Positions 47,101 through 50,100 of a stretch of DNA of 64,000 nt are shown one piece after another. The notes below the pieces were generated by a model, which was not told the DNA's origin, ran no database searches, and saw only the letters and a list, made by a program, of their open reading frames with translations. The translations under genes and the position numbers were made by a program. The stretch is from Zootoca vivipara (taxonomy: Eukaryota), in assembly GCF_963506605.1 (NCBI RefSeq), contig NC_083283.1, forward strand, positions 82,088,001-82,152,000, written 5' to 3'. Within the stretch, counting starts at the first letter, position 1, and each line of letters begins with the position of its first letter.

Positions 47101-50100
47101 CTTTCGAACTGCTAGGCCGGCAGAAGCAGGGACCAAGCAACAGGAGTGCATCCTGTCGCGGGGATTCAAACCGACGACCTTCTGATCGGCAAGCCCTAGG
47201 CTCGGTGGTTTAGACCACAGCACCACCCGCGTCCCATTTATTCACTGTTATTTATTTTAGTCATAGGCTATAACAAAGTGCAATATACTGGCTTATTTTA
47301 AAGCAGACTCATTTTCATTTTCAGCCTAAGGCACATAGAAAATTCCCCTTCGGTCTTTATTACATGCTGGCCCCACTATCGAAACACTCATTCTCTGAAA
47401 ACTTAGTTACCTTAATCCACAAAAGTACAGTATGTCCAAACCTTGCTACACAAGTGGCTGATTCAGATATAACAGCCAGAGTTTGCCCACTTTCTTACTT
47501 GTTTGGATTTTGCTTGTCAGCAGCAGCCATTTCAGGCAGAAAGCCCCACTGAACCCAGTGGAATTTAGATATGTATAGGATTGTGCAGTTGTCTGCATGA
47601 CTTTCCTTGAGCTACTGATAAGGGATACAATCCACTAGAAAATGATTTGTAGGCACCCAAATGAAATGCAGTTCTGTGTACTAGCAGCCTTATTTATGCA
47701 GCAGACCTGGCTTTGATACTACTAAGGCTTTCATTCTATTATGCAAATCATACAGTAAGTAATCTGTAAAATATTTAATGGCATCTCATTTCAACCAGAT
47801 GACTGAGAAGCTTGTCAAGTGGTCCTGGGCCTCTCAGATTGCTTGTGTGTGGTTATTTTGTGCGGAAATTTCCTTACCATTTGCGCTTCTGGAAATTGGA
47901 TCCCACAGACCACACACTGCGTAACGCAAATTGGATTTCCTGCTCCACACACACAGTAGACTACTTTGCCCTTTGGATTATAGAACAAGCACATTTCAGT
48001 AAATGTAAGTGTCAAGCAATGTAGGAATATAGCAGGTATTATGTTCTTACTGCTACAGCAGGAACCCCCCACCCCACCCCCAGAAACCGTTTCTACAGAA
48101 ATCTTTTATTTTTACATCAACTCTGAGCTACCTTTTGGCGGATGCTGCCTTGTTCTTGCAGCCGTGGAGTCATCAGAGCTTCACATACGATACATGTTGG
48201 CGAGTTTCTTGGCACTATAGTCTGGCATTTGTTGCACAATTCCATCTGTAGGGAAATAACAGACACATTTGTACCCATTTTCTTGCCAAACCAGGACAAT
48301 AATCCTAAAACTTTGAAAGAGGAGAACCATCAAAATCTGTGGAATGAATCAGAGGTTAAAAGTAAAAAAAGAAATTTCACATCACAAAAAAGGCAACAGC
48401 AGCCAACCACACTCAAGACTCTGCTGTTCAGCACATCTGTCTATGAAAATACTAGGAAATTAATTCCTGGTGAAGTAGTGACAATGGTGGCAATGGAAAC
48501 ACTGGAGCCCTGGTTGGGGCAAATCTGTGTGTCCACTAAGAAAAAGTCGAGATCTGCAAATCCTTTCTAACACTACTTCTTTATACAAGCCAGTGCAAAC
48601 ACTTAACATGCATTTGACCCAGCTAGCCACTTTCATTACCTGAGACCGAGGCATCCATGTGGCAGAATTAGACTTTTCTCCATCACTTGAGGTATTCAAG
48701 TAATTTTTCGACAGATGTGTTCCAATGATTTGTGAGGGCACAAATGGTTTTTCTTTTGACAAGCCTAAAATTACGCACACATTTCATTTTATTATTTTTC
48801 GATATCACACTTCAAAGGAATGCTAACCTTGACTAACTGTGTAAAACATATCTAAAGCATGTTCTGGAATGAAATAAATTAGAAAAGAGTTAAATCAATG
48901 GCAAATTCACATATACCAAAATACATACTATACATGGAAATAATAACATATAGATGCTGCCCCGTAGTTTAGACTATTGTTGTTTTAATCCCTATTTATA
49001 TTATTATCTTGATAGTCTGTTCAATGGTTCAAAAAGTGTACTAGGCGTATAATAATGAACTGGTCCACTGGTGTTATTACATATGGACATTTGCCTGCAA
49101 TACAAAACACCAAGGAGGAGGTTGTATGCTTTGGGTAAGTATGCTAATCAGTTGTATATGGTAAACTGGCAGCCTAAAGCTTACTAAAAACTAGAGTGAT
49201 AAAGTTGCACAAAGTCAAATTTACAGCACTGCCAATTTCACTGATAATTTTGATACAAAGTGGCAAAATCCAAGGCAATAACTTTGAGTACAGAAAAGAA
49301 TGGGTTCAGGAAGTTATCCATAAAGCTCACTTGCTACCAGTTCAAATTATCTGAACCAGTGGCCTTTTTGGAGTTCTCTCAATTGAAGATTTAACATACA
49401 GTACCTTGTAATTCCAGTGCTACATCATGCAAATGGAACCTGCTTTCAGCACTTGCTTCCTTCTTTCTTAGTTTCAAATGAGACAATTCATCTTCCATCT
49501 CCTAAGAACAAAGATTCTGATCTATAATCCCATATACATATTTTGATCTGTTGCACATGCTCTAGCCATTCTGAAAGGACTCTTATCAGTGTGCTTTTGT
49601 AATAGGCCTTGTGGTTGGAATGGAGGGAATTAGGAATGGGGCAAGGCAGCAAGTGAAAAGATATGTCTGCATCTGTGGACACCTGGCCATTTCTTCGTCA
49701 GAGCGCGAATGGGCAAATTTAGTAGGGGATCAAATACTTTCTCCCCTCACTGTACAATCTACAATCCAGAGACATTTCAGGATTCCATCCATTTTTTATA
49801 TTAGAGTCATAATTTGATTAGGGATGGAGATAAACCAGAGGCCAATACAAATGTATAGTTTACGTTCAGCATGCCAGAATATTCCCCCCTCTCCCCCCTT
49901 TGGAGTCTCCAGGTCTCTTTCATCCAGAAATTCTCTTTGGAGATTTGTTTCCCCCTTTCTCTATGCATCTCCTGCCCCCTGCTATTCCTGAAGCATATGA
50001 GCTCTTGGCTGATTATCTACCTTGACTCCTTGCCCACTTCTCTGGTGTCTAAAAAGGGGCAGTTACAGGTAGGTAGCTGTGTTGGTCTGCCATAGTCGAA

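Follow-up and report, generated by a model that had tools for sequence, protein, structure and literature searches.

Missing zinc-ribbon exons in the DZANK1 gene of lacertid lizards and the likely erosion of the ribbon array in squamates outside geckos

The cilium gene DZANK1 found in the window analyzed here, i.e., a stretch of 64,000 nucleotides of the genome of Zootoca vivipara, encodes two four-cysteine-type ribbons only instead of an array of five, and raises the question of whether the missing modules have really been lost and, if so, in how wide a group. The gene lies on the minus strand, where 16 coding exons, snapped to splice sites, run from position 56979 to position 32161 and encode 612 amino acids with no internal stop. 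All the acceptors are AG, and the donors are GT in 13 cases and GC in two; the GC donors, at 52400-52401 and 36868-36869 (minus strand), belong to two of the 15 introns. The product is identical in 612 of 612 residues to the RefSeq protein XP_034959448.2 of Zootoca, so the short gene model is already present in the databases under the standard name. The use of a single exon as a protein query retrieved Podarcis sequences as best matches (93-95% identity, all named DZANK1), and the same query led to one place in the genome, the gene being single-copy. The initial annotation had described the N-terminal and ankyrin parts as intact, and both are recognizable, as an Fn3-associated domain (PF13287, E 4e-17) and as ankyrin repeats (PF12796, E 4e-11); the DZR family of Pfam (PF12773) has no match in the window product, while it reaches 66 bits in the gecko protein. 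None of the marks of a pseudogene (stops, frameshifts, broken splice sites) is present in the 16 retained exons.

Some features surrounding the coding exons can also be mentioned. A CpG-island-like stretch (57001-58000), with a duplicated block near 57820-57980, is located upstream of the exon carrying the ATG, and a possible donor of a non-coding first exon is found near 57790. Intron 4 contains, at 50134-51090 on the minus strand, a fragment of a reverse transcriptase-like frame, presumably of the LINE family on the basis of its resemblance. The exon numbers of Table 1 follow the 21-exon mouse gene in counting a presumed non-coding exon 1; with this one added, the 16 coding exons fall short of the mouse number by four. 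The 3' end of mouse Dzank1 is made up of exons 20 and 21, and its neighbours are Csrp2bp and Ovol2, according to PMC4910986. Three genes flank DZANK1 in the window and match this mouse neighbourhood: a C2H2 zinc-finger gene (minus strand, frame 833-1195), PET117 near 14400 and, up to about 28700, a gene for a GNAT acetyltransferase.

Table 1. Exons, introns and putative exon remnants of DZANK1 in the window
Feature	Positions	Strand	Basis
E2, first coding exon	56871..56979	-	Splice-snapped exon chain
E3, Ig/Fn3-like N-terminal domain	54469..54622	-	Exon chain, Pfam
E4, GC donor at its end	52402..52519	-	Exon chain
E5, predicted disordered linker	49405..49501	-	Exon chain, transcript contig, predicted structure
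E6, predicted disordered linker, ends in phase 0	48640..48764	-	Exon chain, transcript contigs, predicted structure
394-nt intron where E7 (linker helix) and E8 (ribbon 1) are missing	48246..48639	-	Contigs of runs X1, X7 and X12; DNA contig of run X16
Possible relic of decayed E8, preceded by AG, stop at its end	48382..48436	-	Marginal statistics only
E9, ribbon 2 kept with all four cysteines, phase 0-0	48132..48245	-	Exon chain, ribbon comparison
E10, retained ribbon 3, first pair now Y-C-x-C, phase 0-0	47878..47970	-	Exon chain, ribbon comparison
1363-nt intron where E11 (ribbon 4) and E12 (ribbon 5) are missing	46515..47877	-	Exon chain, contigs
Claimed E11/E12 traces	47360..47430	-	Not above chance
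E13, invariant TQT motif and first core helix	46298..46514	-	Exon chain, alignment, predicted structure
E14 (44973-44870) and E15 (43209-43135), conserved helix/strand core	43135..44973	-	Exon chain, alignment, predicted structure
E16-E21 (40535-40439, 39097-39003, 36950-36870, 36017-35890, 34506-34432, 32314-32161), linker and ankyrin repeats	32161..40535	-	Exon chain, Pfam

The missing modules would lie in the two introns flanking the retained ribbons. The initial annotation had proposed that the exon ending at 48640 is joined in frame to that starting at 48245 across a gap of about 395 nt, and the exon ending at 47878 to that starting at 46514, to give about 612 amino acids; both joins turned out to be in phase 0, across introns of 394 and 1363 nt, and the length of 612 amino acids is exact. 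Since the module borders E6, E9, E10 and E13 are all in phase 0, the removal of whole modules keeps the reading frame. The two joins, for which a check on RNA had been suggested, occur together in one 1312-nt contig of run X1 (RNA-type), which covers 49503-49404, 48763-48640, 48245-48131, 47969-47878, 46514-46297 and 44972-44870 at contiguous record coordinates. In runs X7 and X12, from two further organisms and two further studies, the 48640>48245 skip is seen as a joint, and loose contig ends at 47878 run on into the 46514 exon. Overall, the skip junctions are supported in three of the seven RNA-type runs examined, from three studies, where the RNA-type status of the runs is a guess, the spliced form itself marks the contigs as transcripts and the runs examined are eight of the 21 listed; the exons are uncovered in the RNA-type runs X11 and X13, and have a depth below 5, with no joint listed, in the raw-read runs X19 and X20.

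As regards the DNA, a contig of run X16, obtained from another sample, spans 47476-49600 with no gap and 0 differences; the 394-nt intron is therefore not an assembly collapse, and its length is similar in a contig from another organism. The exclusion of a collapse called for by the initial annotation is hence achieved for the first gap and partial for the second, where 46903-47476 is unbridged by the DNA contigs listed and interspersed repeats abound (about 46710-46861, 46890-47235 and 47431-47544); the element at 46710-46861 is small, with 66-nt inverted arms, and has a very high copy number in reads. A search of the whole genome with gecko E7-E12 disclosed only E9 (E 5e-7) and E10 (E 0.015), both at the DZANK1 locus, and no second copy of the lost modules at E<0.1, the three other matches having E >0.7 and containing stops. 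Likewise, tblastn with 16 orthologues left the lost modules unmatched in either intron, and a scan for frame-keeping AG..GT cassettes gave none in the second gap and, in the first, a single one read in a frame that has no relation to a ribbon. The loss of E7, E8, E11 and E12 from lacertid DZANK1 is real, and the flanking exons join in frame in transcripts; as had been proposed, it is a frame-preserving loss of zinc ribbons, with four exons and three of the five ribbons gone.

The comparison with orthologous proteins allows the ancestral state to be assigned. The initial annotation had expected two extra exons in each gap, with three further ribbons in all, and had considered that these might be a mammalian gain. 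Orthologues do carry a linker and three four-cysteine ribbons at these positions: the linker (E7) and five ribbons (E8-E12) are present in the DZANK1 of alligator, turtle, pheasant, echidna, frog and coelacanth, versus two ribbons in the lacertid one. Five-ribbon arrays occur in geckos, turtles, crocodilians, birds, amphibians and coelacanth, besides the 752-aa mammalian chain 11xu_G1 of PDB 11xu. All five ribbons are found in 123 of 159 non-squamate proteins of at least 300 aa, the other 36 including partial models and skip isoforms. Moreover, when 65 homologues picked for full length, with centipede and fluke among them, are aligned, none of the 16 ligand cysteines in ribbons 1, 3, 4 and 5 varies. 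Judging from these comparisons, the ribbon deficit of lacertid DZANK1 is a loss and not a mammalian gain. The mammalian matches of one protein search mostly lack E11 and E12, which both echidna and the 752-aa chain possess, and their absence was treated as a ranking bias toward short isoforms. Two further observations concern other groups. The models of the suboscines Chiroxiphia, Neopelma, Pseudopipra and Empidonax lack E11 and E12 or E10-E12, and that of Corapipo has all five ribbons; this might be either a parallel loss or an annotation gap. Glandiceps, Pinctada and two further homologues have zero or one ribbon, and ribbon loss may have occurred elsewhere too.

The initial annotation had also recognized decayed remnants of the lost exons, still in order, within the two gaps. 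The quoted peptide-like strings are indeed present at 48435-48382 and 47389-47363; their significance was evaluated, each time under two divergence settings, by a local frameshift-tolerant profile alignment with 300 dinucleotide shuffles, and by a forward-sum version with order controls and 200 shuffles, chosen after the first test, the controls being dinucleotide shuffles and 47 tiles of other introns. Three of the traces are at chance level: the score was reached by 151 and 222 of the 300 shuffles, and by 158 and 150 of the 200, in the case of E7, by 119 and 187, and 124 and 64, in that of E11, and by 94 and 128, and 79 and 57, in that of E12. An interspersed repeat occupies the 47431-47544 segment, which adjoins the trace claimed at 47411-47430. 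The E8 trace is marginal, its score being reached by 23 and 28 of the 300 shuffles, by 3 and 8 of the 200 and by 3-9 of the 47 control intron tiles, counts that stand before correction for four modules and two settings; as a positive control, the E9 profile scored 70-78 bits against its own exon. The claim of a conserved order was not borne out, the correct order scoring no better than the reversed one. An AG precedes the E8 trace, whose phase is the one to be expected of E8, and the trace is possibly a decayed remnant; this sole trace with any signal belongs to the youngest loss step discussed below.

The distribution of the ribbons was then considered in 27 squamate species (five geckos and 22 others), using annotated protein models gathered through protein searches and cluster look-ups. 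The analysis revealed that all five ribbons, with intact cysteines, are present in five of five gecko species, and that none of the 22 other species has all five. A large variety of combinations was disclosed among the latter. The five named lacertid species keep E9 and E10; Rhineura keeps E7-E10; Anolis and Sceloporus keep E7, E8, E10 and E12; Pogona and Phrynosoma keep E10 and E12 (the Phrynocephalus model is partial); Tiliqua keeps E9-E11; Hemicordylus and four snake species have just E10, and Salvator just E9; no ribbon is contained in the models of Varanus and Liasis. E9 is absent from the toxicoferan models. The Hemicordylus isoforms X1-X2 and the Liasis isoforms 1-2 lie outside the sample, and the addition of the Hemicordylus isoforms X3/X4 changed its E10 from absent to present. 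In some cases, half-decayed ribbons are still coding, i.e., E8 of Anolis (ribbon 1, whose first cysteine is gone), E9 and E11 of Tiliqua and E11 of Lerista. Under Dollo mapping on the generally accepted squamate tree, the pattern corresponds to 19 ribbon-module losses, or to 11 when eight weakly modelled species are set to unknown, and the lacertid losses fall at Episquamata (E11), Lacertoidea (E12) and Lacertidae (E7 and E8). The lineage-specific loss of the initial annotation holds insofar as it is shared by five of five lacertid species, and is too narrow insofar as it comprises three tree steps within a pattern extending across 22 non-gecko squamates. These data, which for the other species derive from annotated models, point to a likely clade-wide erosion of a conserved ribbon array outside geckos. 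As for the C-terminal region, six snake and skink models stop before the ankyrin repeats, suggesting two independent truncations.

The retained parts of the protein have evolved at different paces, as judged on a fixed tree by how far the proteins have diverged since the squamate ancestor. Geckos and other squamates have the same value for the N-terminal domain (0.14 vs. 0.14) and similar ones for the TQT-helix core (0.18 vs. 0.23), while ribbon 3 has 0.25 vs. 0.47, over 31 columns only. The shared core reaches 0.33 in geckos vs. 0.04 in turtles and 0.12 in crocodilians; geckos being already faster, part of the rate change predates their split. Ribbon 3 (47878-47970) has Y-C-x-C instead of C-x-x-C in five of five lacertid species, with an extra cysteine in the middle of the ribbon that is also found in Rhineura, and its zinc ligation may be rearranged. 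The AlphaFold models of the gecko and lacertid proteins consist of separate domains (pTM 0.31 and 0.34) connected by low-confidence linkers, and their Foldseek search against the PDB gave ankyrin and DARPin matches only, 11xu not being among them. Neither the TQT motif nor the GYWR helix varies among the 25 DZANK1 proteins aligned, and we take TQT to be a motif of the LC8-binding type.

With regard to function, DZANK1 is described as binding LC8 (PMC4617706) and, as a dimer with LC8, as sitting on transition-zone doublets (bioRxiv 10.64898/2026.06.11.731632). The NINL-binding fragment reported in PMC4617706 comprises residues 244-317, which on the 752-aa chain 11xu_G1 correspond to E9, E10 and the final six residues of E8. 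Since the ribbons 2 and 3 retained by lacertids are those of the mapped fragment, NINL binding through them is likely kept in this family; E9 is absent from toxicoferan models and every ribbon from those of Varanus, so that this pair has not been preserved throughout the clade. Zebrafish dzank1 morphants show outer-segment defects (PMC4617706), PMC4910986 states that eye abnormalities had not been reported for Dzank1-null mice, and any photoreceptor consequence of ribbon loss is speculative.

The whole body of data is best accounted for by assuming that Zootoca possesses a working, spliced DZANK1 devoid of exons 7, 8, 11 and 12, and that selection on the ribbon array was likely relaxed after the geckos split from the other squamates, whose lineages then dropped ribbons independently, a reading to which we assign a probability of roughly 75%. 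Tuatara and dibamids are outside the sample, so that the time of relaxation is bracketed by geckos only. Once the constraint had weakened, a change in a splice site or a small deletion might have led to the skipping of an exon; the short transcript would have been tolerated, and the dead exon would then have eroded. The relics that would demonstrate such decay in place are mostly indiscernible, which weighs against this reading. The models suggest that ribbon loss would spare the rest of the fold, because DZANK1 would be composed of separate domains on flexible linkers. In the lacertid lineage, the order might have been ribbon 4 (Episquamata), ribbon 5 (Lacertoidea) and, after the amphisbaenian split, the linker with ribbon 1. 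The shortened DZANK1 would probably still be bound to LC8, located on the microtubule surface and linked to dynein through the TQT motif and the helix core.

Different explanations can be put forward. The lacertid loss might be real and the clade-wide mosaic inflated by annotation gaps, if weakly expressed cassette exons had been missed in the models of other squamates. Skip isoforms are in fact common among the outgroup models (one or more ribbons are absent from 36 of 159), several squamates are represented by only one or two models, and Hemicordylus changed its state once more isoforms were included; we nevertheless consider this improbable, because the full RefSeq isoform sets (Rhineura, Tiliqua, Pogona, Anolis, Crotalus tigris and lacertids) are consistent within species and with close relatives, 11 losses persist with the eight weak species as unknown, gecko models are complete in the same databases, and the loss of cysteines from ribbons retained in Anolis and skinks is beyond what annotation can cause. 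It might also be supposed that the loss of ribbons was an adaptation, the binding or spacing of partners on the ciliary transition zone of non-gecko squamates being tuned by a shorter DZANK1 or by an altered ribbon 3. The 11-19 recurrences in one clade would fit such a scenario, as would a ribbon 3 that evolves about twice as fast outside geckos with its ligand shift fixed in lacertids; however, different ribbons were lost in different lineages and half-decayed ones persist, which drift explains better than a single selected end state, and this makes adaptation a rather poor candidate.

Two other possibilities have an even lower probability. That the whole gene is decaying to a pseudogene in non-gecko squamates, its open frame being incidental, would agree with the ankyrin repeats missing from snake and skink models and with null mice for which, according to PMC4910986, an eye phenotype had not been reported, but it appears very improbable in view of 16 exons without stop or frameshift, of transcripts found spliced in three organisms, of rates near those of geckos in the N-terminal domain and the TQT-helix core, and of the invariance of TQT and GYWR helix in all 25 proteins. 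A collapse of the assembly, for which the repeats of the second gap and its unbridged 46903-47476 segment leave some room, is hardly credible, given that the DNA contig of the other sample crosses 47476-49600 unchanged, another organism's contig has a first intron of similar length, five lacertid species have the structure in common and transcripts skip both gaps.

The Zootoca gene is a one-to-one orthologue of the vertebrate DZANK1 (PDB 11xu_G1; PMC4617706; bioRxiv 10.64898/2026.06.11.731632), with which it shares the N-terminal Fn3-associated domain, the TQT motif, the helix core and the ankyrin repeats. It differs in having neither ribbons 1, 4 and 5 nor the linker of E7, in its 16 coding exons, in the shifted first cysteine of ribbon 3 and in the unmatched PF12773. 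The RefSeq models of other lacertids (Lacerta XP_033010154.1, Podarcis XP_077789578.1 and XP_053253290.1) are identical to the window product in 574-577 of 612 residues. Similar in-frame drops exist as skip isoforms in outgroups: pig X4 lacks E11 and E12, Mauremys reevesii X2 lacks E10, Lepidochelys X6 lacks E7 and E8, and Eublepharis X2 lacks E11. There, however, the drops concern alternative models (E11 is present in Eublepharis X1), whereas in the lacertid genome the exons are gone. The loss of symmetric phase-0 cassette exons, which preserves the frame and removes one domain per exon, is a general concept in evolution; in this case, it recurs over five neighbouring modules of a single, deeply conserved gene and is confined, within the sample, to one clade. 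A search of the literature on DZANK1 combined with lizard, snake or reptile, with most subscription journals outside its reach, retrieved no mention of missing ribbons, none of 40 titles out of the 79 papers naming DZANK1 deals with a reptile, and a multi-exon loss within a clade-wide ribbon erosion is apparently unreported. The interest is limited by the short model being already in RefSeq, by exon loss being a known process and by there being no linked phenotype.

Going further than relaxed selection, one may tentatively imagine, even though we regard it as somewhat unlikely, that a partner reading the ribbon array was lost or altered in the common ancestor of all squamates other than geckos, that a transition-zone or dynein-adaptor link was rebuilt, and that the surviving proteins form a deletion series defining a minimal DZANK1 made up of the N-terminal domain and the TQT-helix core. 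If this were true, a gene co-decaying in the same clade would name the ribbon ligand. More generally, the squamate DZANK1 is a clear case of repeated modular exon loss, and its mosaic offers a co-loss screen for the ribbon partner. A clade that has shed differing sets of ribbons while keeping the core provides natural deletion alleles.
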